Below, in pieces: positions 5,496 to 64,000 of a stretch of DNA of 64,000 nucleotides. The notes beneath the pieces are model-generated. The model was not told the origin of the DNA, did not search any database, and saw only the letters and a program-made list of their open reading frames with translations. Origin of the DNA: Candidatus Eremiobacteraceae bacterium. Its GTDB lineage: Bacteria > Vulcanimicrobiota > Vulcanimicrobiia > Eremiobacterales > Eremiobacteraceae. Every line of letters begins with the position of its first letter. Positions within the stretch are counted from its first letter, which is position 1. A program made the position numbers and the translations under genes. Where the stretch lies: positions 1,566-65,565 of the forward strand of contig DATCBN010000015.1 in NCBI GenBank assembly GCA_036511855.1, given 5' to 3'.

Positions 5496-6497
5496 ATGAA
5501 GGCTCATTTTGCCGCAATCGCCGCTGCGGCAGCGGCGGCTTGCTGTCTCTCGATGTCGCAGACCGCATCGGCGGCCGTGCGGCCGCTCGACCGCGTGTTC
5601 ATCATCTTTATGGAAAATCAGGGATTCGACAACGTCGTCGGCCATCTCGACGCCAACAACAATCCGGACACCCCGTTCATCACGCACCTTGCGGAGCGAT
5701 ACGGCCTCGCGACGCTCGAATTCGGCGTCACCCATCCAAGCCTGCCGAACTACGTCTCTTTGATCTCAGGCGACTACTACGGAATCCAAGACGACAACCC
5801 GTCTTGCTATGCCAAACCCACGCCTCAGCCGCCGTGCGACAAGATCGACGCGACGAACATCGTCGACGAGCTCGAAGGAGCCGGCATATCGTGGACGGCG
5901 TTCGAGCAGACCATGCCGACGCCCGGTTATCTCGGCGTGCAGTTCCCGAAGACCGGCGCACCGCTGTACGCGCAAAAGCACAACCCGTTCGTCTATTTCA
6001 GGGATATCGCCAATAACCCGGCCCGGCTTGCGAAGATCGTGCCGCTCCCGAACATGGACGCACTCTTGCAAGCGCTCGCGGGCGGGAGAACGGCGCCGCG
6101 TTACGTCCTGATCGTGCCGGACCAATGCCACGACATGCACGGCCAAACGCCGTGTTCGGATCCCGACCGTCTCCTGGTCCAGGGCGATATCTACGTGAAG
6201 AATCTGATCCATACCATCAACAATTCGCCTGCATACACGAAGAACTCGGCGATATTTTTGACCTGGGACGAAAACGACTTCTCGTCGTTCCTCGGATGCT
6301 GCGACTCGCCGGCGATCGGCGGCGGCCACATCGCGACCATCGTCATCACGCAGCGCACGACCAAACCAATACAGACCGCGACGTTCTACAATCACTACTC
6401 GATCCTGTCGACGATTGAACAGTCGTTCGGCTTGGGGCTCCTCGGGCATACCAAAGACACCGCCAACGTCGTTCCCCTCACCGATCTGCTGCCATAG
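5496..6497 (+). CDS. secreted phosphoesterase-family protein (acid phosphatase / phospholipase C-like, PF04185-type)
   Basis: Signal peptide 'MKAHFAAIAAAAAAACCLSMSQTASA'. Motifs 'FIIFMENQGFDNVVG', 'HPSLPNYVSLISGD', 'KHNPFVYF', 'LTWDENDF'. AAAGGA lies 10 nt upstream of ATG 5496. Confidence 0.8.
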   Translation: MKAHFAAIAAAAAAACCLSMSQTASAAVRPLDRVFIIFMENQGFDNVVGHLDANNNPDTPFITHLAERYGLATLEFGVTHPSLPNYVSLISGDYYGIQDDNPSCYAKPTPQPPCDKIDATNIVDELEGAGISWTAFEQTMPTPGYLGVQFPKTGAPLYAQKHNPFVYFRDIANNPARLAKIVPLPNMDALLQALAGGRTAPRYVLIVPDQCHDMHGQTPCSDPDRLLVQGDIYVKNLIHTINNSPAYTKNSAIFLTWDENDFSSFLGCCDSPAIGGGHIATIVITQRTTKPIQTATFYNHYSILSTIEQSFGLGLLGHTKDTANVVPLTDLLP

Positions 6498-6526
6498 ACA
6501 TCAGACAGCCAAACCCGCTCCCGTAT

Positions 6527-6556
6527 CGCCATCTGGACCCGTTGGTCCAGATGGCG
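6527..6556 (+). terminator. perfect 13-bp stem / 4-nt loop hairpin downstream of the phosphoesterase gene (no U-tract)
   Basis: CGCCATCTGGACC-CGTT-GGTCCAGATGGCG begins 30 nt after the stop at 6497. It lacks a T-run, so it is terminator-like only. Confidence 0.45.
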
Positions 6557-6625
6557 GTGTAACAGCCGTCACACTAGCACGGTCGTACTCTGGCAAGGCC
6601 AAGACTTGGCTAAAAGAGGTCGACC

Positions 6626-11328: not shown

Positions 11329-11402
11329 GGCGACATAGCCAAGTGGTAAGGCAGGGCTCTGCAAAAGCCCGATCCCCAGTTCGACTCTGGGTGTCGCCTC
11401 CA
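11329..11402 (+). tRNA. tRNA-Cys (GCA), CCA encoded
   Basis: GGCGACA/TGTCGCC acceptor stem, GCC/GGC D stem, GGGCT-CTGCAAA-AGCCC anticodon arm (anticodon GCA), CCCAG-TTCGACT-CTGGG T arm, discriminator T plus CCA. Confidence 0.9.
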
Positions 11403-13620: not shown

Positions 13621-14289
13621 ATGAACCCGGCGCCGGGCCGTCCAACTAAGGTCTCCATGCGTTTATCAGGCGGCGCCAAAGCGCGCCGGCCACTGCTCGC
13701 GCCGAAGGGCGTGCGGACGCGGCCGACGTCGGCGAAAGTTCGTGAAGCGCTCTTCGCGGTTTTGGGCAAGCGGATCGAAGAGGCGCGCGTGCTCGACCTC
13801 TTCGCCGGATCCGGCGCGCTCGGCCTTGAGGCGATGTCGCGCGGAGCGGGTTCCGTGGTCTTCGTCGACAACGACGCGGACGCGGTCATGGCAGTGCGGC
13901 GCAACGCCGTCCGCGTCATCGAAGAGAAAGATCGCTTCCGCATCATGCCGATGCTCGCCATACGCGCTCTGCGGGTGCTTCGCGGCACGTTCGACATCGT
14001 CTTAGTCGACCCGCCGTACGATCGCGGAGCGCGCGAAGAACTCGCCACGCTCATGCAACGCGGTCTGGTCGCGACCGACGGCGTCGTCGTCGTCGAACAC
14101 CGCACGGGCGAGGACGCGCCGCTGCCTGAATCGCTTAAGGTGCTCAAGTCGGCGAAATACGGCGACACCACGCTGACCTTCGCCGCCGTGCGGCCGGCGC
14201 GCGAATCATTGCCGGAGGATCGCGCGGCGGAAAGCGTGCTCGCCACGAAATCGCGCCAACCCGCGCGCCGCGAGAAGAGCCGCCGTTGA
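13621..14289 (+). CDS. rsmD: 16S rRNA (guanine966-N2)-methyltransferase RsmD
   Basis: 'RPTSAKVREALFAVLG', 'VLDLFAGSGALGLEAMSRGA', 'DIVLVDPPY'. ATG 13621 lies 1 nt after the recG stop (alternative ATG 13657). The track ORF start at 13306 overlaps recG. Confidence 0.85.
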   Translation: MNPAPGRPTKVSMRLSGGAKARRPLLAPKGVRTRPTSAKVREALFAVLGKRIEEARVLDLFAGSGALGLEAMSRGAGSVVFVDNDADAVMAVRRNAVRVIEEKDRFRIMPMLAIRALRVLRGTFDIVLVDPPYDRGAREELATLMQRGLVATDGVVVVEHRTGEDAPLPESLKVLKSAKYGDTTLTFAAVRPARESLPEDRAAESVLATKSRQPARREKSRR

Positions 14290-14849
14290 AACCCGTACTA
14301 GGGCAAGCCGTACTAGGGCAAGCAACGCTTGCCCAACCGGACGCCCAGCCGGACGCCCAACCCGGTGGCCTCGTCGTCTACCCCGGCAGCTTCGACCCGA
14401 TGACAAACGGCCATCTCGACGTCGCGCGCCGGGCGGCCCGGAATTTCTCGCGATTGGTGGTCGCCGTCGTCTCCAACCCGAACAAACGCCCGATGTTCGC
14501 GCTAGCCGAACGTGTGGAAATGCTGCGCGAGGCCTGCGCCGACCTCGCTAACGTCGAAGTCGACGCCTTCGACGGCTTGCTTGTGGAGTACGTCAGGCGC
14601 CGGGGCGCGAGCTTGATCGTAAAGGGTCTGCGGATCGTCGCGGATTTCGAGGGCGAATTCACCATGGCGCTCCTCAATCGCAAATTGGCAGGTCACGTCG
14701 ACACGATGTTTCTGCCGGCCAGCGTCGAATATGCCTATGTGTCGTCGTCGAGTGTCCGCGAGATCTTCGCGCTGGGCGGCGATGTCTCGGAATTCGTGCC
14801 GCCATCGGTGCTGCGCGCCATGGCCCGTCTGCGGGGGAAGGTCTCATGA
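14286..14849 (+). CDS. coaD: phosphopantetheine adenylyltransferase CoaD with REP-derived N-terminal extension
   Basis: 'VYPGSFDPMTNGHLDV' (T/HxGH) and 'ISSTLVRE-like SSSVREI' motifs. The only in-frame ATG/GTG/TTG upstream of the GSFDP motif is TTG 14286, which overlaps the rsmD stop as TTGA. Confidence 0.85.
   Translation: MKPVLGQAVLGQATLAQPDAQPDAQPGGLVVYPGSFDPMTNGHLDVARRAARNFSRLVVAVVSNPNKRPMFALAERVEMLREACADLANVEVDAFDGLLVEYVRRRGASLIVKGLRIVADFEGEFTMALLNRKLAGHVDTMFLPASVEYAYVSSSSVREIFALGGDVSEFVPPSVLRAMARLRGKVS
14295..14334. repeat. REP-like element: partial copy plus full hairpin GGGCAAGC-AAC-GCTTGCCC
   Basis: GTACTAGGGCAAGC (14295-14308) is duplicated as CGTACTAGGGCAAGCAACGCTTGCCC (14309-34), followed by the tandem CCGGACGCCCA(G/A) x2 at 14337-14360. 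Confidence 0.85.
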
Positions 14850-16836: not shown

Positions 16837-16861
16837 TTTAATCATCTCAATTACTGTAATA

Positions 16862-16911
16862 GGGCAAGCACCGCTTGCCCAAAACCGGATGCGGGCAAGC
16901 GTAGCTTGCCC
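16862..16911. repeat. REP-like hairpin pair in inverted orientation
   Basis: GGGCAAGC-ACC-GCTTGCCC (16862-80, head GTAATA on the left) and GGGCAAGC-GTA-GCTTGCCC (16893-911, TAATAC on the right). Confidence 0.85.
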
Positions 16912-16934
16912 TAATACACGATAGGAAGCCAATA

Positions 16935-22912: not shown

Positions 22913-22944
22913 TAGGTCCCGTTCCGTAGGGGAATCTCGTACGA

Positions 22945-23067
22945 GGGCAAGCATCGCTTGCCCCGTTTTTGTTTCAACGCACGTACTAGGGCAAGCATCG
23001 CTTGCCCCGTCGTTCTGTAGGAGGGTGAGCAACGCTCACCCATTTTTTGGGCAAGCGATGCTTGCCC
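22945..23067. repeat. cluster of four REP-like hairpins (three forward, one reverse; one compensatory variant)
   Basis: GGGCAAGC-ATC-GCTTGCCC at 22945-63 and 22989-23007. GGGTGAGC-AAC-GCTCACCC at 23023-41. GGGCAAGC-GAT-GCTTGCCC at 23049-67. Confidence 0.9.
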
Positions 23068-23098
23068 TAGTTCGATTGCCCTCCTACAATAACGGCCC

Positions 23099-45831: not shown

Positions 45832-48800
45832 TTACGAGCACCCCATGCTTCTTCCACACGAATCGCAGACGTAGCACGCTCCGTTGCGCCGGGTCAGCGA
45901 TCCGCACCCGTCGCACACCGGAGCGTCGCCCATCATCGAGGCCAACTGCGCCTCGCGCGAGCGAAGAGCGTTTAGTTGGGCCGCGGCCGATGGGTCGATC
46001 GGAGTCGCCGGTGATTGGGCAAGCGATGCTTGCCCTAGTACGGGTTTGGATTGGGCAAGCGATGCGTGCCCTAGTACGGGTTTGGACGAACTACTCGAAC
46101 CTGTTTGTGCGGACGGCGACAACGCGCGGCGCGCGATGACCTTCGCCGATTCCTCCGAAGCTTGCTGCTCGGCGACCATCGTCTCGAATTCGGAGAGCGC
46201 GTGGTCCTCGTGGTGGGTGTCGTCGACGTCTTTGTCTTCAGGTTTGACCTGAACGAAGTCGGTCCGTCCGAGATACTCCATACCGAGCACGCGGAAGATG
46301 TAGTCGATGACGCTCGTGCACGATTTGATGTTCGGGTGATCGACGAAGCCGTTGGGCTCGAACCGTGTGAAAGTGAACTTCTCGACGAATTCTTCCAGCG
46401 GCACGCCATACTGCATTCCGATCGAAACGGCGATCGCGAAGCAGTTCATGAGACTGCGGAACGATGCGCCTTCTTTGTGCAGATCGACGAATATCTCGCC
46501 TAAGGTGCCATCGCCGTATTCACCGGTGCGCAAGAAGACGGTGTGCCCCGCGATTTTCGCCTTCTGCGTCCAGCCGCGCCGTTTTGCCGGCAGCCGGTTG
46601 CGTTCGAGCACTTGCGCGACTTTGCGTTTGAAGTCGGTGTTGTCGGTGTTGGCGAGGATGCGTTGCGCGGCCGCGAGGATTTCGTCCGGCCGCAGTTCAT
46701 CGGCCGCGGACTGACGCGCCGCGGCGAGGCGGTCTTCGAACTCTTTGGACAACGCCAGCTGACGATCTTCGGCGGACTCGCTCGATTTGTCGGAGCCCTT
46801 GGTGGAGAGCGGCTGCGATAGCTTGGATCCGTCTCGATACAGCGCGATAGCCTTTAGCCCGAGGTCCCAGGAGCGCATGTACGCCTCTTGGATGTCTTGG
46901 ACGGTGGCTTCCATCGGCATGTTGATGGTCTTGGAGATGGCGCCTGAGATGAACGGCTGCGCGGCAGCCATCATGCGCACGTGACCCATGTGCTGGATAT
47001 AGCGGCGGCCGATCTTGCCGCACTTATTCGCGCAATCGAACGCGGCGTAGTGCTCTTCTTTGAGATGCGGTGCGCCTTCCACGGTCATCGTGCCGCAGAT
47101 ATAGTTGTTGGCGGCGTCCACCTCGTCGCGCGAGAAGCCGAGCAATCGCAAGAGGTCGAAGTCCGTCGCGCTGTATTGTTCGGGAGTGAAGCCCAGCCGC
47201 TGAAGCGTGGCCTCGCCAAGGCTCCATTGATTGAAGCCGAAGCCGATCTCGAACACCGCCGGCAAGCTGCGCTCGATGGCTTGGATGTCTTGGTCGTTGA
47301 AGCCGCGCGCGCGCAACGTTTCGACATTGATGTACGGCGAGCCGTACAGCGTGCCCGCGCCTTTGGCGTAGCGGATGATGTCGTCGATCTGCGCCGGCGC
47401 GTAGCCGAAGTTTCGCAACGCCACCGGAATGGATTGGTTGATGATCTTGAAGTAGCCGCCGCCTGAGAGCTTTTTGAACTTCACGAGCGCGAAGTCGGGC
47501 TCGATGCCGGTGGTGTCGCAATCCATCTGAAGGCCGATTGTTCCAGTAGGTGCAATGCATGTGGCCTGCGCGTTGCGATAGCCATGTTCTTCGCCAAGTT
47601 CGAGCGCCCGATCCCACGCTGCCCGCGCAGCGGCTAGCAGATACGGCGGGCACAACGTCTGGTCGATGCCCATCGGAACGACAGACACTTCTTCGTATTC
47701 CGCACCCGGTGCGTTGTATGCCGCGCGACGATGATTGCGCATGACGCGCAGCATGTCGTCGGAATTTTCTCTATAACGCGAAAACGGCCCAAGTTCGCCG
47801 GCCATTTCGGCCGACGCAGCATACGACTCACCCGTCAAGATTGCAGAGATCGCTCCAGATATCGCGAGCGCTCGAGGAGAATCGTACGGAATACCGGCGA
47901 CCATAAGCATCGTGCCGAGATTCGCATAGCCAAGACCGAGAGTGCGATACTCGTACGACTTTCGTGCGATGGATTGACTTGGAAAGTGCGCCATGAGCAC
48001 GGAGATCTCGAGCACCATCGTCCACAGCCGGATGGCATGACGATACGCTTCTACGTCGACGGTGTTCTTTTCGGCGTCGAAGAACTTCATCAAGTTTATA
48101 CTTGCCAAGTTGCAAGCTGTGTCGTCCAAGAACACGTACTCGGAGCAGTTGTGCACGATCAAGCCGTTGGCGACGAAATGGTGCGTGTCGGATTCGGTGA
48201 GATCGAAGACGGGCTCGAGCCCCAGGGCCTCAATTGTGTCGACTTCATCGACCAACGGTTCGGCGTACGTCGCCACATCGCGATTGATCGCGGCGAGCGC
48301 ATCGGCCTTTGCGGTTACCGGATCGAAGCCAATGTGCTGTTCGAATAATACGCGCGACGCACGGCTGACCCGCAGCGAATGCATCTCTTTCACTGGATAT
48401 GTGCGCATCCCGCCGCGGCCATCCGGCAACGCGGCTTCGAGCTTGCCATTGCGACGGCCGGAATAGATCTTCGCTTTGATGCCGAAGGAGAGCAGAAGTA
48501 GTTGAACCTGCTGGAGCAGTTCGAGCGATGTTGAATCGAGCGCCACATATTGGCTCTTGTCGCCGTAGTTGGCAACCGTGCCATCGGCGGAGAACAGGCC
48601 GCGAAGCACGAGACCGACGGATGCGCGGTCGAGTTCGTACACCGAGTCGGTGAATCGTTTCTGGTGGCTGCCCTGGTCGAGCACAGCGTATCGTTTGAAG
48701 ACGTCGACCACAGGTTGCGAGCCGAACGACAGCCGGGAAGTACTGGAGGTGTACGACGTGACCTGGACTTCGTCGTTTCGTCCGACGGAGCCGATGGCTT

Positions 48801-50400
48801 TCCGCGCGCGCTTTTCGTCGTTGACGGCGAGCGCGATCTTTTCGAGAATCGGCCACTCCGCCGCGGCCATGACTAGAGTTACATTCTCGCGGGCGCGCCC
48901 CGCGACGGTCGCATGAGCAAGATAGCCGTCGCCTACGGCGGCGCCGATGCCAAGCGCGATATCGTCGACAAGTTTGACCGAGCCGAAGCCCGATCCAGCA
49001 AGCGCGACGAGATCGCCCTTTTGCAGTTCGTTCGCGGCGACGTCGCCGCGCGACTTCGTGAACACCTTGTGGTCGCCGGTGAGGCGAAGCGAATAGCCGG
49101 CCTTGGTGCGCAGGCGGAACACTTGCTTCGTGCCGGTTGGGAAAATGCGGGAGACGAAGTGCGCCTTGCCGTCGGAGCCTATGACGAATGCGGACTTGCC
49201 GACGAGGGCATCGATGCGGTGCAGGCCGTCGGCTGTCGCGACGAATGTATCGCCCGTGACACACGGATTTGTCGCCCGGATCCGTCCGCCCTTAGGCGAT
49301 GTATGCCATGAATTGATGATGTCGTCATATTGCACGCCTGGATCTGCGCACGCCCACGCGGCGCGGCCGATCTGATCCCACAGATCGCGCGCGCGAACGG
49401 TGCGCGCCACCGAGCGATCCTTGCGCCACAGCAGATCCCACGAACCGTCGTTGCGCACGGCGTCGATGAACTTGTCCGGCACGCGCACGGAGTTGTTGGA
49501 GTTCTGACCGGAGACCGTCTGATAGGCCTCGCCCTCGTACGAACTGTCGTAGCCGGCGGCCATCAGCGCGGCGACTTTCTTTTCTTCTTGCACTTTCCAA
49601 TTGATGAACTTGTCGATGTCAGGGTGGTCCATGTCGAGGATGACCATCTTCGCGGCGCGCCGGGTTGTGCCGCCGCTCTTGATTGCGCCTGCGGCTCGAT
49701 CGCCGACTTTGAGGAAGGACATGAGGCCGCTCGACGTGCCGCCGCCGCCTAGCTTTTCGCCTTCGGCGCGGATGTTCGAGAAATTGCTTCCCGTGCCCGA
49801 ACCCATCTTGAAGAGGCGCGCTTCGCGCACCCACAGATCCATGATGCCGTTTTCATTGACGAGATCGTCTTCGACCGACTGGATAAAACAGGCGTGCGCC
49901 TGCACGCGTGTGTACGCGTCTTCGGAGCGCACGAGCTCTTGCGTATCGGGGTCGACGTAATAGTGTCCTTGCGGCGTGCCGGTTATCCCGTACGCATAAG
50001 CCAGCCCGGTGTTGAACCACTGCGGCGAGTTGGGCGCGGCCATCTGATTGATGAGCATGTGTGTGATCTCGGCATCGAACGCGGCAGCGTCTTCGTCGGT
50101 GTCGAAATATTTATAACGGCGTCCCCAATCGGTCCAGCATCCAGCTAAACGGCGCACCACCTGTCGCGCCGACGTTTCGCTGCCAAGCGAACTATCGGGT
50201 TGGGGCACCCCGGCTTTGCGGAAATATTTCTGCGCGAGGATGTCGGTGGCGACTTGCGACCACGCTTTCGGCACTTCGACATCGCGCATCTCGAAGACGA
50301 CGGTGCCGTCGGGCTCGCGGATGACCGATTCCCGGCTATCCCATTCGATGGTGTCAAGCGGATCGGTGCCTTGTTTGGTGAAACGCCGTTGGATCTTCAT
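45832..50400 (-). CDS. nrdJ: adenosylcobalamin-dependent ribonucleotide reductase (class II, NrdJ), intein-containing precursor
   Basis: '[11 protein letters not shown]', '[12 protein letters not shown]', 'TNPC|...|[18 protein letters not shown]' split by an intein, 'ISKTINMP', C-terminal zinc ribbon '[21 protein letters not shown]'. Confidence 0.92.
46017..46071. repeat. two REP-like hairpins (36-nt unit x2) inside the nrdJ coding sequence
   Basis: GGGCAAGC-GAT-GCTTGCCC-TAGTAC (46017-41) and GGGCAAGC-GAT-GCGTGCCC-TAGTAC (46053-77). The 36-nt unit spans 46014-49 and 46050-85. Confidence 0.9.
48148..49263 (-). mobile_element. intein (372 aa) with LAGLIDADG homing-endonuclease domain inside nrdJ
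   Basis: Residues 380-751 of the precursor. Block A '[13 protein letters not shown]', block B 'LTGDHKVFT', LAGLIDADG motifs '[12 protein letters not shown]' and '[12 protein letters not shown]', block F/G '[13 protein letters not shown]' followed by +1 Cys. Codons checked: TGT at 49261-63, AAC at 48148-50. Confidence 0.88.
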
Positions 50401-57665: not shown

Positions 57666-59147
57666 TTAGACGTTGGATGCGTTCTTGGGATGCAGCGTGC
57701 TCTTGTGATACCCGTAAAAGCCGTAGATCGCAGCGCCGACGGCGAACCACACCAAGAACCGGATCCACGTCGGGAGCGAGAGCCCGTAGAGTATCAAACC
57801 GGTGCACATGAGGAACCCGAGTACGCCGATGAGGGGCCCCGCAGGTGCGCGGAATGGACGCTTTGCGTTTGGCGCGACGACGCGCAGGATCACGATGCCG
57901 ATGCTGACGATGGCGAACGCGGACAAGGTGCCGATATTGACGAGCTTGAGCAGATCGGCAAGCGGCACGATGAGGGCGAGAAACGCCACGACGACTCCGG
58001 TGATCATCGTGGTGCGCGCAGGCGTGAGGAACTTTGGATGCAGCGCCGACACAGCCGGCGGCAGCAGCCGGTCGCGCGACATGACGTAGAAGATGCGCGA
58101 TTGGCCGAGCAACGATGTCAGCATCACGCTGATGTTGCCGACCATCGCGCCGATCGTCACCGACACGACCGGAAAGAATTGATTGCCCGCCAGCCGGACC
58201 GCCTGGCTCATCGCTGAGTCCGCCGCGATCTTGTTATACGGCACCACGCCGGCCGTGACGGCGGCGATGGCGACGAAGAGCAGACCGCCGATGAAGAGCG
58301 AGCCGACGATCGCGATCGGCACGTCGCGCTGCGGATTTTTGGACTCTTCGGAGGCGACGGTGACCGTATCGAAGCCGATGTAGGCGAAGAAGACGAGAGC
58401 GGCGCTCGCGACGACGCTGTGAAAACCGAGTGGCGCAACGCCGGTGAAATTGCCTGGATGGATGAAGTGCGTGCAGACGATGAGGAAGATGACGAACGAA
58501 GCGATCTGCACGACGACAAAGATGGCGTTGGTCGACGCGGATTCTTTGATGCCGATCGCGAGCAGCGCGCTGACGACGACGACCGATACGGCGGCGATGA
58601 CATCGTACTGCGAATGCGCGAGATCGAATTGCATTAATTGGAGGTGCCAGCTGCCGATCGAGATCGGCCAAGGATTTGTGACGAGAGCCGCTGTCTGCAT
58701 CGAGGACGGCACGACGAGGTGGAAGTAACCGAGCAGTTCTTGGAAATAGCCCGAAAATGACGATGCGACCGGTGCCGCGCTGATGCCGTATTCGAGAACG
58801 AGATCCCAGCCGATGACCCACGCGATGAACTCGCCGAGCGTGGCATACGCATACGTATAGGCGCTGCCGGCGACCGGAACCATCGACGCGAATTCGGCAT
58901 AACAGAGCGCCACGAAGACGCAGGCCAGACCGGAGATCCCGAACGCGAGTATGACGCCGGAGCCGGCGGTCTGAATGCCGACGCCGACCGTGGGGAATAT
59001 CCCGCCGAGCATCGTGCCGAGGCCGATCCCGATGAGCCCCCACACGCCGAGCACGCGGCGCAATTTGGGTCCCTCATGATCGGAGCGCAGACGGTCGAGC
59101 GGCTGGCACGCCGCCAGCCGCTTGAGAAACGCCGCCACGCTTTGCAC
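57666..59147 (-). CDS. APC-superfamily amino acid/polyamine permease
   Basis: 12-13 TM helices, 'GIGLGTMLGGIFPT', 'SAYTYAYATLGEFIAWVIGWDLVLEY'. Confidence 0.85.
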   Translation of the reverse strand: MQSVAAFLKRLAACQPLDRLRSDHEGPKLRRVLGVWGLIGIGLGTMLGGIFPTVGVGIQTAGSGVILAFGISGLACVFVALCYAEFASMVPVAGSAYTYAYATLGEFIAWVIGWDLVLEYGISAAPVASSFSGYFQELLGYFHLVVPSSMQTAALVTNPWPISIGSWHLQLMQFDLAHSQYDVIAAVSVVVVSALLAIGIKESASTNAIFVVVQIASFVIFLIVCTHFIHPGNFTGVAPLGFHSVVASAALVFFAYIGFDTVTVASEESKNPQRDVPIAIVGSLFIGGLLFVAIAAVTAGVVPYNKIAADSAMSQAVRLAGNQFFPVVSVTIGAMVGNISVMLTSLLGQSRIFYVMSRDRLLPPAVSALHPKFLTPARTTMITGVVVAFLALIVPLADLLKLVNIGTLSAFAIVSIGIVILRVVAPNAKRPFRAPAGPLIGVLGFLMCTGLILYGLSLPTWIRFLVWFAVGAAIYGFYGYHKSTLHPKNASNV

Positions 59148-59153
59148 GGACTC

Positions 59154-60602
59154 CTACCGGTATTTCACGACGAGAGTCTTGAGCTCGGTCATCTCTTCCA
59201 TCGCGTAACGGACGCCTTCGCGGCCAAATCCGCTCTCCTTGACGCCGCCGTACGGGAAGTTGTCGACGCGGAGCGTGGGATAGTCGTTGCAGATCACGCC
59301 GCCGACGTTCAGCTCGTCGAATGCCTTGGCGATGCTGCGCACGTCGAACGTGAAGACGCCCGCCTGCAGGCCATACCGGGTTTCGTTTGCGCGCGCGAAC
59401 GCTTCATCGATCGAAGCGACCGGCGCGATCGTGGAAACCGGCCCGAAGATCTCTTCGGCCTCCACCTTCATCGCGGGCGTCGTGCCGGTGAGAATCGTCG
59501 GCTCGAGCACGTTGAGACGGCGCGCGCCTCCGGCCAAGACTTTGGCGCCCGCGCGCACGGCCTCTTCGACCCACGCGCTGACGCGGTCGGCGCTCGCGGT
59601 GTCGATCATCGGGCCGACTAATGTCTCGGGGCTTGCCGGGTCGCCGACGTGCAGCGCCGCGGTCTCTTGCCGGAAGAGCGTGACGAACGCGTCGAAAACG
59701 GTCTGCTCCACGAAGATGCGCTGCACCTTGATGCAGACTTGGCCGGCGTGCGCGAACGAGCCAAGCGCACAGCGTTTCGCCGCCCATGCGACGTCCGCAT
59801 CGGCGAACACGAGCGCGGCGGCGTTGCCCCCCAACTCCAACACGACTTTCTTCTTGCCCGCGACGGACTTCAAGTGCCAGCCAACCTTGGCCGATCCGGT
59901 GAACGAAAGCATCGCGATGCGCTCGTCCGCGGCGATTGTCTGCGCGACGCCGACCGGGCAATGCACCACGGAAAGTGCGGAAGCCGGAAGCCCGGCGTCG
60001 TAGCAGACGTCGGCGAGGAGCAGCGCGCTCAGGGGTGCTTGCGGCGGAGGTTTCAACACCACGGTGTTGCCCACCGCGAGAGCGGGCGCAAGTTTGTGTG
60101 CGACCAGGTTCAGGGGAAAATTGAACGGCGAGATCGCGCCGATGACGCCGATCGGGAAGCGGGCGACGATCGCTGTGTAGCCCTCGGTCGACGGCGCCAG
60201 ATCGAGCGGCAGCATCTCGCCGCCGAAGCGCGTGGACTCTTCTGCGGCAAGCGTGAACGTGCTGACGGCGCGGTCTACCTCGATGCCGGCGTACGTTCGC
60301 GGCTTGCCGCTTTCGGCGATCATGAGATCGACGAACTCCGCGCGCCGCTCGCGCAGTCGTGCCGCGACGCCGAGCAGCAAGTCCTTGCGTTTGTAGCGTG
60401 GCCAGCGTCGAAACGAATCGAAGGCAGCGGATGCGGCGGAAATCGCGTCGTCGAGGTCTGCAGCGGTGCCGACGCCGATGGTGGCCACGACGCTGCCGTC
60501 GTACGGATTGATCACCGGCTCGGCTGTCGCCGTCGGCCTGCGCTCACCTGCGACCGGGAGCACGCGGTGCACGACCGCCGGATTCGCCGTGCTTGCGCTC
60601 AC
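59154..60602 (-). CDS. aldehyde dehydrogenase family protein (candidate succinate-semialdehyde dehydrogenase by context)
   Basis: 'FNFPLNLVAHKLAPALAVGNTVVLKP', 'ELGGNAA', catalytic Cys 'AGQVCI', 'EEIFGPV'. GTG 60602 overlaps the upstream stop (GTGA). The track N-terminus is spurious. Confidence 0.85.
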   Translation of the reverse strand: MSASTANPAVVHRVLPVAGERRPTATAEPVINPYDGSVVATIGVGTAADLDDAISAASAAFDSFRRWPRYKRKDLLLGVAARLRERRAEFVDLMIAESGKPRTYAGIEVDRAVSTFTLAAEESTRFGGEMLPLDLAPSTEGYTAIVARFPIGVIGAISPFNFPLNLVAHKLAPALAVGNTVVLKPPPQAPLSALLLADVCYDAGLPASALSVVHCPVGVAQTIAADERIAMLSFTGSAKVGWHLKSVAGKKKVVLELGGNAAALVFADADVAWAAKRCALGSFAHAGQVCIKVQRIFVEQTVFDAFVTLFRQETAALHVGDPASPETLVGPMIDTASADRVSAWVEEAVRAGAKVLAGGARRLNVLEPTILTGTTPAMKVEAEEIFGPVSTIAPVASIDEAFARANETRYGLQAGVFTFDVRSIAKAFDELNVGGVICNDYPTLRVDNFPYGGVKESGFGREGVRYAMEEMTELKTLVVKYR

Positions 60603-62119
60603 CGGTCGGCGAACCAGCCGCTCGGCTCGACCGCCAGGTTGACGTTGATCTGCTTGACCTCGGTGTAGGCGTCGTAGCCGTAGGTGCCGAGTTCGCGTCC
60701 GATGCCCGACTGCTTGTAGCCGCCCCACGGCGCTTCATTGTACGTGGGATGGTACGTGTTGATCCAGGTGATGCCCGCGCGCAGCTTGCGGATCACGCGG
60801 TGCGCGCGCGCTATGTCGTTCGTGAAGACCGCGCCGGCGAGGCCGTAGATCGTATCGTTGGCCATTTCGACGGCCTCTGCTTCATCCTTGAATTTCTGCA
60901 CGACGAGCACGGGGCCGAATATCTCCTCTTGCACGATGCGCATCGACGGCTTCGTGTTCGAGAAGATCGTGGGCACGATGAAGTTGCCTTTAACCCCTAG
61001 CTCGCCGCCTAATCGTTCGCCCCCGCACTCAAGGGTGGCGCCCTCGGCGAGGCCGATCTTGATGTATGCCTCGACTTTTTCCTGATGCGCGCGGCTGACG
61101 ATCGGGCCCATCTCGACCGTCGGGTCGAAGCCGTCGCCGACCACGATTTTCTTGGCTCGTTCGACGAGCCGTTTGACGAAGCGGTCGTGAAGCGTGTCTT
61201 GGACGATGAGGCGCGATCCCGCCGAGCAGACCTGACCCGCGTTTGCATAAATGCCGAAAAGCGCGTAGTCGATCGCCGTGTCGAAATCCGCGTCGGCGAA
61301 GACGATGTTCGGCGACTTGCCGCCGAGCTCGAGCGAGATCTTCTTGAGGTTGCCAGTGGCGGCTTGCATGATCGAACGTCCGGTCTTCGTGCCGCCGGTG
61401 AAGGCGATCTTGTCGACGAGGTCGGATGCGGCGAGCGCGTGACCCACCACCGCGCCCGCGCCGGTGAGGATGTTCACAACGCCGTTCGGAAAACCGGCTT
61501 CCTTTATCAGCACGGCGAGGCGCAACGCGGTGAGCGGCGTGAGTTCCGAAGGCTTGAGGATGCAGGCGTTTCCCGCGGCAAGCGCCGGCGCAAGCTTCCA
61601 CGCGGCCATCAGCAGCGGATAGTTCCAAGGGATGATCTGACCGCAGACGCCGATCGGTTCGCGCACCGTGAAGCTTTGCGACGCGGCGGGCACGTCGAAG
61701 GTCTGGCCGTGCGGCTTCGTGGCAAGACCAGCGTAATAGCGGAAGCAATTCGCCGCATCGGTCATGTCGTATTGGGTTTCGCGCAACGGCTTGCCGTTGT
61801 TCAACGTCTCGAGACGTGAGAGCTCCTCGGCGTGCTCGTCGATGCGGTCGGCGAGTCTGTGGAGCAGACGCGCGCGGTCTTGAGCGAGCGACTCGCCCCA
61901 GGGTCCGTTTTGGAACGCCTCTCGGGCAGCGCGGATGGCCCGCTCGGCGTCCGCGAGCGTGCCTTCGGCGACTCGCACGATGAGCTCGCCGTTCGAAGGA
62001 TTGATGCACTTGCTCGTACCACCGTCGGACGCGGCGCTGAATACGCCGTCGATGAACATGAGCGCGACGCCGTTTTCGCGGTGAAGATTCTTGAGCAGAT
62101 CGTCCTGCATGGTCAACAT
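60599..62119 (-). CDS. aldehyde dehydrogenase (aminobutyraldehyde/betaine-aldehyde dehydrogenase-like)
   Basis: 'WNYPLLMAAWKLAPALAAGNACILKPSELTP', 'LELGGKSP', 'NAGQVCSAGSR', 'EEIFGPV', 'PWGGYKQSGIG'. Confidence 0.88.
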   Translation of the reverse strand: MLTMQDDLLKNLHRENGVALMFIDGVFSAASDGGTSKCINPSNGELIVRVAEGTLADAERAIRAAREAFQNGPWGESLAQDRARLLHRLADRIDEHAEELSRLETLNNGKPLRETQYDMTDAANCFRYYAGLATKPHGQTFDVPAASQSFTVREPIGVCGQIIPWNYPLLMAAWKLAPALAAGNACILKPSELTPLTALRLAVLIKEAGFPNGVVNILTGAGAVVGHALAASDLVDKIAFTGGTKTGRSIMQAATGNLKKISLELGGKSPNIVFADADFDTAIDYALFGIYANAGQVCSAGSRLIVQDTLHDRFVKRLVERAKKIVVGDGFDPTVEMGPIVSRAHQEKVEAYIKIGLAEGATLECGGERLGGELGVKGNFIVPTIFSNTKPSMRIVQEEIFGPVLVVQKFKDEAEAVEMANDTIYGLAGAVFTNDIARAHRVIRKLRAGITWINTYHPTYNEAPWGGYKQSGIGRELGTYGYDAYTEVKQINVNLAVEPSGWFADR

Positions 62120-62144
62120 CTGAACCCTCGTTTCCGGCGAGACG

Positions 62145-63470
62145 TCACGCGCTGAGCGTCTTGCGAGACATGGTTTCGAGCGAGTCGCCCAACGCCTTGC
62201 AGACGTACTCGATTTGCTCCTCCGTGATCGTGAGCGGCGGCTCGAAGCGGATGGTCCGCGCGTTCACAAGCGTGCCGGAGACGAGCACGCCGCGTTTGAG
62301 CATCTGCTTTCCCAGTTCGAAACCGAGTTCGTTCGTGACGAATTCGATCGCGATGAGAAGACCTTTGCCGCGCACGTCGCTCACGATGTTCGCGTGCCCT
62401 TCGACCGACTTGCGCAGGCCGGCGATGAACTTCGCGCCGATGACCCCTGCGCGCTCCGGCAATTTCTCTTCAAGCAGGACGTTGATGGTCGCGAGCGCCG
62501 CAGCGCACGCGAGCGGATTGCCGCCGAACGTCGTCGTGTGCAGAAACGGATTTTTGAAAAGCCGTGAGAAGACGGCTTTGCTTCCCACCACCGCCCCTGC
62601 CGGCATGACGCCGCCGCCGAACGCCTTTGCAAGGCAGATGAGATCGGGCGTGACGCCGTAGTGCTCGCAGCAGAACATCTTGCCGGTGCGGCCCATGCCG
62701 GTCTGAACTTCATCCAGCACGAGCAACGCGCCGTAGTCGTCGCAGAGCTTTCGCACGCCGGGGAGATAATCGTCGTCGGGCAGGTTCACGCCGCCTTCAC
62801 CTTGGATCGGTTCGAGCACAACCGCGCCCGCCTCTTCGCCGACCATCCGCAATTTGTGCATCTCCGTTCGCAGTTCTTCGAGATCGTTGAACGGCACGTG
62901 TTCGACATTCGGCAGCATCGGGCCGAACGGCATGCGGAATTCGCCTTTCGCGCTGACCGAGAGCGCGCCAAAGCTTTTGCCGTGGAATCCTTTCGTGGCG
63001 GCGACGATGGTCGGTTTTTTGGGATCGTACGCGCGCGCCAATTTCAAGGCGGCCTCGACCGCTTCCGTGCCGCTATTGCAGAAGAAGGCGTATTCCAGGT
63101 TGCCGGGCGTGACCATCGAGAGCGTCTTTGCGAGCATGGCGCGCAGCGGGTCGAGCAGATCCTGGCTGTGCAGGGCCTGGCGTTTCAGCTGGTCGGTGAC
63201 CGCCTTGACGACTTTCGGATGGCGATGACCCACGTTGAAGATGCCGAATCCGCCAAGGCAGTCGATGTACTCTTTGCCGTTGACATCGCGAAAGGCGTTC
63301 GGCCCGGCATCCTCCCATTCGACGGCTGCCGCCGCATGATCGACCGACAACGCCTTGCGATATTCGAGAAAACCCGGATTGACATGATCGCGAAATCCGT
63401 TCACGGTCTCCGCCGTGATCCACGCGGCGTCGTCGGGCGTGATCGCCGGCTTCGCGATAAGATCCAACAC
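62145..63470 (-). CDS. patA: putrescine--2-oxoglutarate aminotransferase (class III, YgjG/PatA-like)
   Basis: Long near-identical stretches to the remembered E. coli PatA: 'VNPGFLEYRK', 'IDCLGGFGIFNVGHR', 'HSQDLLDPLRAMLAKTL', 'LDEVQTGMGRTGKMF', 'FLHTTTFGGNPLACAAALATINVLLE'. Confidence 0.88.
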   Translation of the reverse strand: MLDLIAKPAITPDDAAWITAETVNGFRDHVNPGFLEYRKALSVDHAAAAVEWEDAGPNAFRDVNGKEYIDCLGGFGIFNVGHRHPKVVKAVTDQLKRQALHSQDLLDPLRAMLAKTLSMVTPGNLEYAFFCNSGTEAVEAALKLARAYDPKKPTIVAATKGFHGKSFGALSVSAKGEFRMPFGPMLPNVEHVPFNDLEELRTEMHKLRMVGEEAGAVVLEPIQGEGGVNLPDDDYLPGVRKLCDDYGALLVLDEVQTGMGRTGKMFCCEHYGVTPDLICLAKAFGGGVMPAGAVVGSKAVFSRLFKNPFLHTTTFGGNPLACAAALATINVLLEEKLPERAGVIGAKFIAGLRKSVEGHANIVSDVRGKGLLIAIEFVTNELGFELGKQMLKRGVLVSGTLVNARTIRFEPPLTITEEQIEYVCKALGDSLETMSRKTLSA

Positions 63471-63536
63471 GCGTTGCGTGTATGCTATGGTTTCGCTATT
63501 CGAGTTCGTAGGAATTTGTTTTCTCCGTTTGTATTA

Positions 63537-63591
63537 GGGCAAGCATCGCTTGCCTACTGGGTAATGCGACGTGGGCAAGCGATGCTTGCCC
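63537..63591. repeat. REP-like hairpin pair in inverted orientation
   Basis: GTATTA-GGGCAAGC-ATC-GCTTGCCT (63531-55) and GGGCAAGC-GAT-GCTTGCCC-TCCTAC (63573-97). Confidence 0.85.
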
Positions 63592-63608
63592 TCCTACATT
63601 CTAATTCG

Positions 63609-64000
63609 TTACGCAAGCACCGCTTCGCAGCTTTCGGTCAGCCTCGTCAGTGCGATCTCCAATTCGTCGTCCTTTATCACGAGCGGCACCAGCACGCGGA
63701 TGATGTCGCCTTTGGCGCCGGCCGCCATCAGCAGGAGTCCGCGGCTGCGGGCTTCGGCGACGATGAGCTTCGCGATCGTGGGCAGACCCGATGCGGGCTC
63801 ATCGACGAATTCGACCCCCATCATCGCGCCCAACCCGCGCACATCCCCGACGTGTGAGAAACGCCGCTGCAACTCGCGCAGAGAGGCTTCGACTCGCAGC
63901 CCGATGGCGATGGCGCGCTCGACCAGATGTTCTTCCTCAAAAATGTCGAGCGCGGCGAGCGCGGCTGCGCACGCGAGCGGATTGCCCGCGTACGTTCCTC
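63609..64000 (-). CDS. class III aminotransferase, C-terminal part (4-aminobutyrate aminotransferase-like); 5' end off-window
   Basis: The frame is open to the window edge: '..GTYAGNPLACAAALAALDIFEEEHL...VGDVRGLGAMMGVEFV...GDIIRVLVPLVI'. Confidence 0.8.
   Translation of the reverse strand, partial: GTYAGNPLACAAALAALDIFEEEHLVERAIAIGLRVEASLRELQRRFSHVGDVRGLGAMMGVEFVDEPASGLPTIAKLIVAEARSRGLLLMAAGAKGDIIRVLVPLVIKDDELEIALTRLTESCEAVLA

Follow-up and report, generated by a model that had tools for sequence, protein, structure and literature searches.

A polar REP-like hairpin family dispersed in a Candidatus Eremiobacteraceae lineage and translated in frame within coaD and nrdJ

The window analysed here, a stretch of 64,000 nucleotides from a Candidatus Eremiobacteraceae bacterium, carries five clusters of a short hairpin repeat. 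The first (14295-14334) follows recG-rsmD and falls within the coaD ORF identified by a Pfam scan, and the second (16856-16917) separates yceD (Pfam YceD) from rpmF. The third (22939-23073) lies between the convergent rimM and alpha/beta hydrolase genes, the fourth (46017-46077) within nrdJ, a class II ribonucleotide reductase gene encoding 1522 aa, and the fifth (63531-63597) between two co-directional class-III aminotransferase genes on the minus strand. The original prediction had placed clusters at operon boundaries, and the Pfam assignments agree for the sites before rpmF, after rimM and between the aminotransferase genes, while the clusters at 14295-14334 and 46017-46077 proved to be intragenic. 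Three of the five clusters are therefore intergenic, two of them between unidirectional genes and one between convergent genes. The nearest named homologues of CoaD and NrdJ come from Candidatus Eremiobacteraeota and Candidatus Eremiobacteraceae (phylum Vulcanimicrobiota). A tRNA-Cys(GCA) gene at 11329-11402, just upstream of recG, is the only match to Rfam or ARAGORN in the window.

A search of the window with the pattern GGGCAAGCNNNGCTTGCCC, allowing up to 2 mismatches, returned 10 matches, compared with 0.05 expected and a maximum of 1 in 100 dinucleotide shuffles, so that within the window the motif is in clear excess; a lack of excess had been named beforehand as a finding that would speak against the family. 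A stem-variant copy, GGGTGAGCAACGCTCACCC at 23023, lies outside these core matches, and together with the partial copy at 14295 it completes the set of 12 copies that had been predicted, all of which are present at the coordinates given for them (Table 1). Perfect hairpins with an 8-bp stem and a 3-5 nt loop number 18 in the window, and 10 of these are members of the family. By an 11-mer census this is the only repeated family in the window besides CG-rich low-complexity words, and Rfam assigned no family to any of the copies.

Table 1. Copies of the hairpin repeat in the window.
Copy	Coordinates	Strand	Remarks
Partial copy, head GTACTA and left arm GGGCAAGC(C)	14295..14309	+	Duplicates in frame the first 15 bp of the copy that follows; coaD 5′ coding region
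Full copy, GTACTA-GGGCAAGC-AAC-GCTTGCCC	14310..14334	+	Read as VLGQATLAQ, CoaD N-terminal extension
GTAATA-GGGCAAGC-ACC-GCTTGCCC	16856..16880	+	Left half of heads-outward doublet, yceD/rpmF
Reverse-strand GTATTA-GGGCAAGC-TAC-GCTTGCCC	16893..16917	-	Right half of yceD-rpmF doublet
GTACGA-GGGCAAGC-ATC-GCTTGCCC, then CGTTTTTGTT	22939..22963	+	Terminator-like; 27 nt past the rimM stop
GTACTA-GGGCAAGC-ATC-GCTTGCCC	22983..23007	+	Predicted long-hairpin partner of the copy at 23049
Stem variant, GTAGGA-GGGTGAGC-AAC-GCTCACCC, then ATTTTTT	23017..23041	+	Terminator-like
Reverse-strand GAACTA-GGGCAAGC-ATC-GCTTGCCC	23049..23073	-	Head degenerate
nrdJ copy, sense orientation	46017..46041	-	Second unit of 36-bp in-frame tandem; 10 residues between (K) and (S)
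nrdJ copy, one stem mismatch (GGGCACGC)	46053..46077	-	First unit of 36-bp tandem; 10 residues between (K) and (S)
GTATTA-GGGCAAGC-ATC-GCTTGCCT, one mismatch	63531..63555	+	Left half of heads-outward doublet
Reverse-strand GTAGGA-GGGCAAGC-ATC-GCTTGCCC	63573..63597	-	Right half of doublet 63531/63573

In nine of the window copies the stem is immediately preceded, on one strand, by GTA-N-N-A. The tag is GTAG in 2 of 11 heads and otherwise mostly GTAC, GTAT or GTAA. Copies with the loops ATC, AAC or ACC have the head on the left, and the loops GAT and GTA are the reverse complements of loops on the opposite strand. Since the orientations of loop and head are concordant in every window copy, the unit is polar, and the asymmetry on which the original prediction had based its assignment of orientation is real. 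The inverted pairs that it had described in three clusters are likewise seen, at 16856/16893, 22983/23049 and 63531/63573. With the 9.5 kb of the source contig that lies beyond the window included, there are 14 copies in 73.5 kb, and a divergent promoter region just beyond the window holds a sixth doublet.

Beyond the source contig, we scanned genome contigs for the bare hairpin and found, among the matches listed, that most were unrelated uses of the same 19-mer, which is found across many unrelated genomes either as a terminator or as part of a different REP family. Hairpins with a head were confined, among the matches listed, to the Eremiobacterota MAGs DATBOZ01 and JABCYQ01. A metagenome scan with the pattern GTANNAGGGYRAGCNNNGCTYRCCC gave at least 120 stretches, and the MAG loci and metagenome stretches together hold at least 258 oriented copies in about 0.7 Mb and about 130 stretches. 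Copies are thereby spread across over 100 further, independent contigs of this lineage. Among the matches listed, the commonest heads were GTACTA (77), GTAGTA (77), GTAGGA (42), GTATTA (27) and GTACGA (17), the commonest stems GGGCAAGC (172), GGGTGAGC (38) and GGGCGAGC (37), and the commonest loops ATC (163) and AAC (49).

The asymmetry was also assessed in an orientation-blind census of 248 perfect hairpins, in which the regular expression itself imposed GTA in the head. Among the matches listed, a head was present on exactly one side in 229 of the 248, on both sides in 3 and on neither in 16. The two dominant loops always follow the side of the head (ATC and AAC with a left head, GAT and GTT with a right head), with a few rare loops deviating. 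Among the 229 headed hairpins listed, the fourth base of the tag was G in 112 (49%), C in 88, T in 20 and A in 9, and position -7 was T or C in 214. Nothing is conserved beyond -7 or +19, which sets the length of the unit at about 26 nt: a Y-GTA-N-K-A head, the 8-bp stem GGGCAAGC, a loop A-N-C and then GCTTGCCC.

Covariation of the stem was scored on copies picked by head and left arm only. Among the matches listed, the arms paired as CA:TG in 170 copies (GGGCAAGC/GCTTGCCC), as TG:CA in 36 (GGGTGAGC/GCTCACCC) and as CG:CG in 34 (GGGCGAGC/GCTCGCCC), with 12 mismatched. The right arm thus tracks the variant in the left arm, which shows that the hairpin is maintained, although amplification of three master copies may underlie the pattern in place of many separate compensatory changes. 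Inverted pairs less than 200 bp apart are nearly all of the heads-outward '+-' type, with only 2 '-+' pairs among the matches listed, and their starts are 26-43 bp apart. The units of direct arrays recur every 34-36 or 51 bp. A single unit is predicted to fold at -13.3 kcal/mol as RNA and -9.2 as DNA (z-scores -4.1 and -5.5), and for doublets a single long hairpin is predicted, with energies of -40 and -49 kcal/mol and z-scores between -7 and -9.

Syntenic loci in relatives were reached via CoaD homologues. There are 0 copies in L243 (CoaD 85% identical; 20.5 kb, from recG to rimM and beyond), in L244 (82%; 16.5 kb) and in L247 (89%; 7.4 kb). L249 and L250, both with a CoaD 91% identical, each carry a single copy at the 5′ end of coaD; in L249 an intact single copy also lies at yceD/rpmF, where the window has a doublet, and L250 stops short of that junction. 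The window itself has 1.6 copies in the coaD 5′ end, 2 at yceD-rpmF and 4 after rimM, a position at which rimM and the hydrolase gene overlap in L243 and L244, with no spacer at all. Because syntenic close relatives have 0, 1 or 2 copies at the same sites, the copies are recent insertions; an origin of all copies in a single local duplication, which had been named as the finding that would speak against a dispersed family, is contradicted by this variation at orthologous sites. The flanks of filled and empty sites are too diverged (82-91% protein identity) to define insertion boundaries or a target. At the fifth cluster, the DATBOZ01 locus (L026) is 81% identical to window positions 57678-64000 over 6.3 kb, and its orthologous spacer (6225-6400) holds one GGGCAAGC copy bracketed by two inverted copies of a different GTAG-tagged hairpin. 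This second family, GTAGTGCCGACC... (ATGTAGTGCCGAC...GTCGGCACTACAT), is absent from the window. A Logan short-read contig from the same organism (L122, 1780-1811) breaks off within the first of the copies that follow rimM, as assemblies are expected to do at multi-copy repeats.

Two of the five sites in the window are translated in frame within essential genes. In coaD, the conserved domain begins at residue 31 of the ORF, and direct reading of the sequence shows no in-frame ATG, GTG or TTG from the repeat up to the invariant VVYPGSFDP motif. This leaves the TTG at 14286 as the sole possible start; it overlaps the stop codon of rsmD, and the public gene call uses it too. With no start codon between the repeat and VVYPGSFDP, the coaD repeat must be translated (LKPVLGQAVLGQATLAQPDAQ...). 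The closest CoaD homologues, P0121 and P0122, contain (R/Q)GQASLAQ, and P0123-P0125 have a short N-terminus (VTEDKSAPVIYPG) without the repeat. Directly after the coaD repeat, at 14337-14362, a tandem of CCGGACGCCCA(G/A) x2 encodes PDAQPDAQ and adds another in-frame expansion to this N-terminal extension.

In nrdJ the repeat unit is 36 bp (12 codons) long and occurs twice in tandem, giving 24 residues in a linker that follows the TSCPD domain (residues 1285-1373) and precedes the cysteine-rich C-terminal tail. This tail is invariant in all aligned homologues, so the reading frame must cross the repeats. A relative with 89% protein identity (L251) has a single copy in the same place, with the hairpin intact (GGGCAAGCACCGCTTGCCC) and the head mutated, and in homologues at 74-78% identity the repeat site is taken up by a variable linker of unrelated sequence. 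The same nrdJ gene (45832-50400, minus strand; class II, that is, B12-dependent) also contains an intein with a LAGLIDADG homing-endonuclease domain at about residues 414-751. The repeat is read in the same frame in coaD and nrdJ, GTA CTA GGG CAA GCA TCG CTT GCC CAA. A composition-filtered screen suggests that about 18 of 253 copies among the matches listed fall in real, coding-like long ORFs. Among them is an array in L129 (6170-6302), where a 36-bp unit of the GGGCGAGC sub-family is repeated fourfold in tandem and reads in frame as LSTRASIARPDD x4, within a long ORF of coding-like composition upstream of a multi-pass membrane domain; the period here is 36 bp, whereas the non-coding arrays elsewhere have periods of 34, 35 or 51 bp.

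Among the 12 window copies, the two after rimM that are followed by T-runs score as terminator-like. A T-run was scored where the 9 nt following the hairpin, read on the head-first strand, included 5 or more T. By this measure 64 of 230 oriented copies among the matches listed (28%) have a T-run on the tail side, compared with 2.1% of 9-nt windows, a background drawn from all sequence and not from the AT-richer intergenic regions only. Inserted copies would often be transcribed, and from their sequence those with T-runs may act as intrinsic terminators or as 3′ stabilisers of mRNA.

We searched for a gene of the kind that mobilizes REP sequences, using a RayT HMM built from 120 homologues, an HUH...YxxNP regular expression and phmmer with an approximate E. 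coli RayT query. No Y1/HUH or RAYT gene was detected in the window, in the extra 9.5 kb of the source contig or in the approximately 0.75 Mb of REP-bearing Eremiobacterota DNA. The HMM gave no match in the window, as the original prediction had noted, although 64 kb is uninformative on the absence of a RAYT, and the approximately 0.75 Mb searched is much less than one genome and is thus not evidence of absence either. No REP-encoded peptides, which could have pointed to the cognate enzyme, were found in the termini of 139 RayT homologues. Over all loci, RayT matches were limited to L154, which is frameshifted and probably from Acidobacteriota, and L056, from a Phycisphaeraceae MAG. The frameshifted gene, on a metagenome stretch (L154, 130-770), has thousands of homologues annotated RayT and a C-terminal part that weakly matches Pfam Y1_Tnp, and it is flanked by GTAGAA-GGGCGAGC-GCC-GCTCGCCC-CTAC hairpins. 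Its closest relatives, P0004 and P0008, have inverted GTAG-GGGCGAGC-GGC-GCTCGCCC on both sides, the classical REPtron layout, and REPtrons with a RayT of 183 aa lie at L252 5930-6600 and L255 5930-6700. The nearest named homologue of this clade is from Candidatus Angelobacter (Acidobacteriota), and the contigs are 65-68% GC. By analogy, we take the clade to indicate the kind of enzyme that would accompany such hairpins, not the enzyme acting in the Eremiobacteraceae genome. In L056, the weak RayT-like ORF (6033-6605; E = 5e-6 against the RayT HMM) adjoins a GGGCAAGC-CCC-GCTTGCCC hairpin with CAT/ATG flanks, and the same flanks are found in several Planctomycetota loci.

These REPtrons resemble the Eremiobacteraceae family in having a nearly identical core (GGGC[G/A]AGC with a 3-nt loop) and a GTAG tag, and one L154 copy has a 2-nt spacer between tag and stem (GTAGAA-GGGCGAGC). 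They differ in that their loop is GGC/GCC rather than ATC, the tag usually abuts the stem, the host is 65-68% GC and there is no synteny with the window (L154, L252/L253 and L255). A GTAG-like tag is the feature recognised by RAYT in E. coli. Doublets of REP sequences are reportedly the subject of work by Bertels & Rainey in 2011, Nunvar in 2010 and Messing in 2012 on the REPIN/RAYT system of Pseudomonas fluorescens and on the REP/BIME elements of E. coli with TnpA-REP. The family studied here is like those systems in that inverted doublets are predicted to form one long hairpin and copy number varies among close relatives. Unlike them, it includes many singletons and direct tandems, its doublet spacing is 26-43 bp and it shows no IHF or L/S-type BIME linker motifs. 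With its variable spacing and common intact singletons, it falls outside the strict definition of a REPIN as a fixed-spacing doublet that replicates as a unit and of which singletons are decayed forms. In-frame insertion into essential genes, with a peptide added to a tolerant region, is a likeness to the Rickettsia palindromic elements and other intragenic palindromic repeats. RPE-1 elements are roughly 100-150 bp, and the 25-nt Eremiobacteraceae unit is much shorter, adding 8-12 residues per copy.

The closest correspondence is with the GTAG superfamily. As described in the survey by Di Nocera, De Gregorio & Rocco (2013, PMC3733652), GTAG-tagged REPs have a 6-9 bp stem, a 2-3 nt loop and an unpaired 5′ tag, with an unpaired dinucleotide between tag and stem in the GTAG-1 and GTAG-2 families. 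That text also describes compensated stem sub-families, preferred HH dimers including heterodimers, grouped or tandem arrays, placement mostly between unidirectional or convergent ORFs and occasional in-frame copies, often in DNA-synthesis or repair genes (PMC3733652). The Eremiobacteraceae family agrees in stem and loop sizes, an unpaired tag at one end (here GTA-N-K-A), the tag-stem dinucleotide, compensated sub-families, HH dimers, arrays, ORF placement and coding copies. The hosts given there are Proteobacteria, Cyanobacteria, Chloroflexi and the PVC group, and the degeneracy of the tag is at positions 2-3 (PMC3733652). Our family differs in its host (Eremiobacterota/Vulcanimicrobiota), in its relaxed fourth tag base and in having no REPtron in approximately 0.75 Mb. 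On the text descriptions of the GTAG families, the GGGCAAGC stem could be matched to no listed family.

Taken with the excess in the window, the original reading of a REP-like family is borne out by the dispersal and variable presence of the copies, their compensated stems, their heads-outward pairs and their GTA(G/C) tag. Copies of the family are scattered over contigs of the lineage, vary in presence at orthologous sites, keep their stems through compensated variants, form heads-outward doublets and tandem arrays, and are tolerated in frame in variable protein segments. The mechanism of copying is most likely RAYT-type single-strand transposition. In full, we consider it probable that this is a GTAG-type REP family that expanded recently in one Candidatus Eremiobacteraceae lineage and was copied by a RAYT-type Y1/HUH transposase encoded elsewhere. 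The unit would form a hairpin on single-stranded DNA, with an 8-bp GC-rich stem and a 3-nt loop, whose polarity would be set by the unpaired 5′ tag GTA-N-K-A. On single-stranded DNA, this transposase would recognise the hairpin together with its tag, and would cut and join next to the hairpin, as E. coli TnpA-REP does. The strictly conserved unpaired GTA tag (GTA being imposed by the census expression) and the polarity of the unit together suggest recognition by a protein. The same two features speak against a spread by replication slippage, gene conversion, hairpin recombination or some other enzyme, with no dedicated RAYT, an account that we regard as doubtful. Amplification of the slippage type is evident in the tandem periods of 34-36 and 51 bp and in the local 15-bp and 36-bp duplications, but slippage accounts for local arrays and not for new single copies at distant sites. 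Further points in favour of spread without a dedicated RAYT are the relaxed fourth tag base, the lack of a RAYT in any of the less than 1 Mb of Eremiobacterota sequence examined, a sample whose small size also weakens the point, and the CGTC-tagged REPs, which have no dedicated transposase and for which a spread of this kind has been proposed (PMC3733652). A related and unlikely combination is that the family propagated without a classical GTAG-specific RAYT, having either no Y1 enzyme or one with a relaxed GTAN preference, and that it routinely colonises coding sequence in frame as 5- or 12-codon modules (VLGQA; the 12-residue unit; LSTRASIARPDD). If this were true, essential enzymes, CoaD and class II ribonucleotide reductase among them, would regularly acquire new linker peptides from the REP family.

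Other readings do not invoke REP copying at all. Intrinsic terminators or RNA-stability elements that evolved in place, and came to resemble one another by convergent selection, would fit the terminator-like copies after rimM and the enrichment of T-runs 3′ of the hairpin, and in unrelated genomes, for example in Zoogloeaceae, the GGGCAAGC-N3-GCTTGCCC core is an obvious terminator with an A-run and a T-run. However, convergence would not be expected to give an identical 25-nt sequence that includes the unpaired head and the loop, the T-run is absent in 72% of the oriented copies among the matches listed, copies lie within coaD, nrdJ and a divergent promoter region, and copy number is unequal among near relatives. 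As the sole explanation, convergent terminators are thus largely refuted, and we judge this reading improbable. MITEs mobilised by a DDE transposase are very improbable: heads-outward doublets look superficially like terminal inverted repeats, but the unit is a single 25-nt hairpin that often stands alone, doublet spacing is variable, no transposase was seen near the copies, and the census flanks, which are not a direct test, show nothing conserved beyond -7 and no signal suggestive of a target-site duplication. The palindromic sequence and the regularly spaced arrays could also recall the operators of a regulator that binds palindromes, or what is left of a CRISPR-like array, and this we hold to be the least credible reading. 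Intragenic and 3′-end positions and hundreds of copies do not fit a regulon, and with periods of 34-36 bp neighbouring repeats are 9-11 nt apart, which is less than a CRISPR spacer would occupy. A CRISPR array was rejected on inter-repeat distances of 9-26 nt (periods 34-36 and 51 bp) and on 'spacers' that are themselves repeated; the MITE and operator readings were rejected on anatomy.

With this family the range of GTAG-type REPs extends to Eremiobacterota (Vulcanimicrobiota). Most of this soil phylum is uncultured and the published REP surveys searched do not include it; a full-text literature search found no description of REPs in Eremiobacterota. The family leaves the current view of REPs unchanged, the type of element being already known. 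The natural series of 0, 1 and 2 copies at the same junction in close relatives should be useful for the study of REP arrival and duplication. There are also practical effects, in that short-read assemblies of the lineage are broken, coaD start calls are shifted and REP-encoded peptides appear in annotated proteins.

The scans also brought to light a separate REP family, GTAGGGT-GGGCAAGC-N3-GCTTGCCC-ACC, in the Ramlibacter sp. MAG SMAG_U3128 (L002, L016, L019, L032, L049, L060, L084, L086, L099 and L111). It has the same 8-bp stem and a canonical GTAG tag, and similar copies occur in the Hyphomicrobiales MAG DASZVN01.
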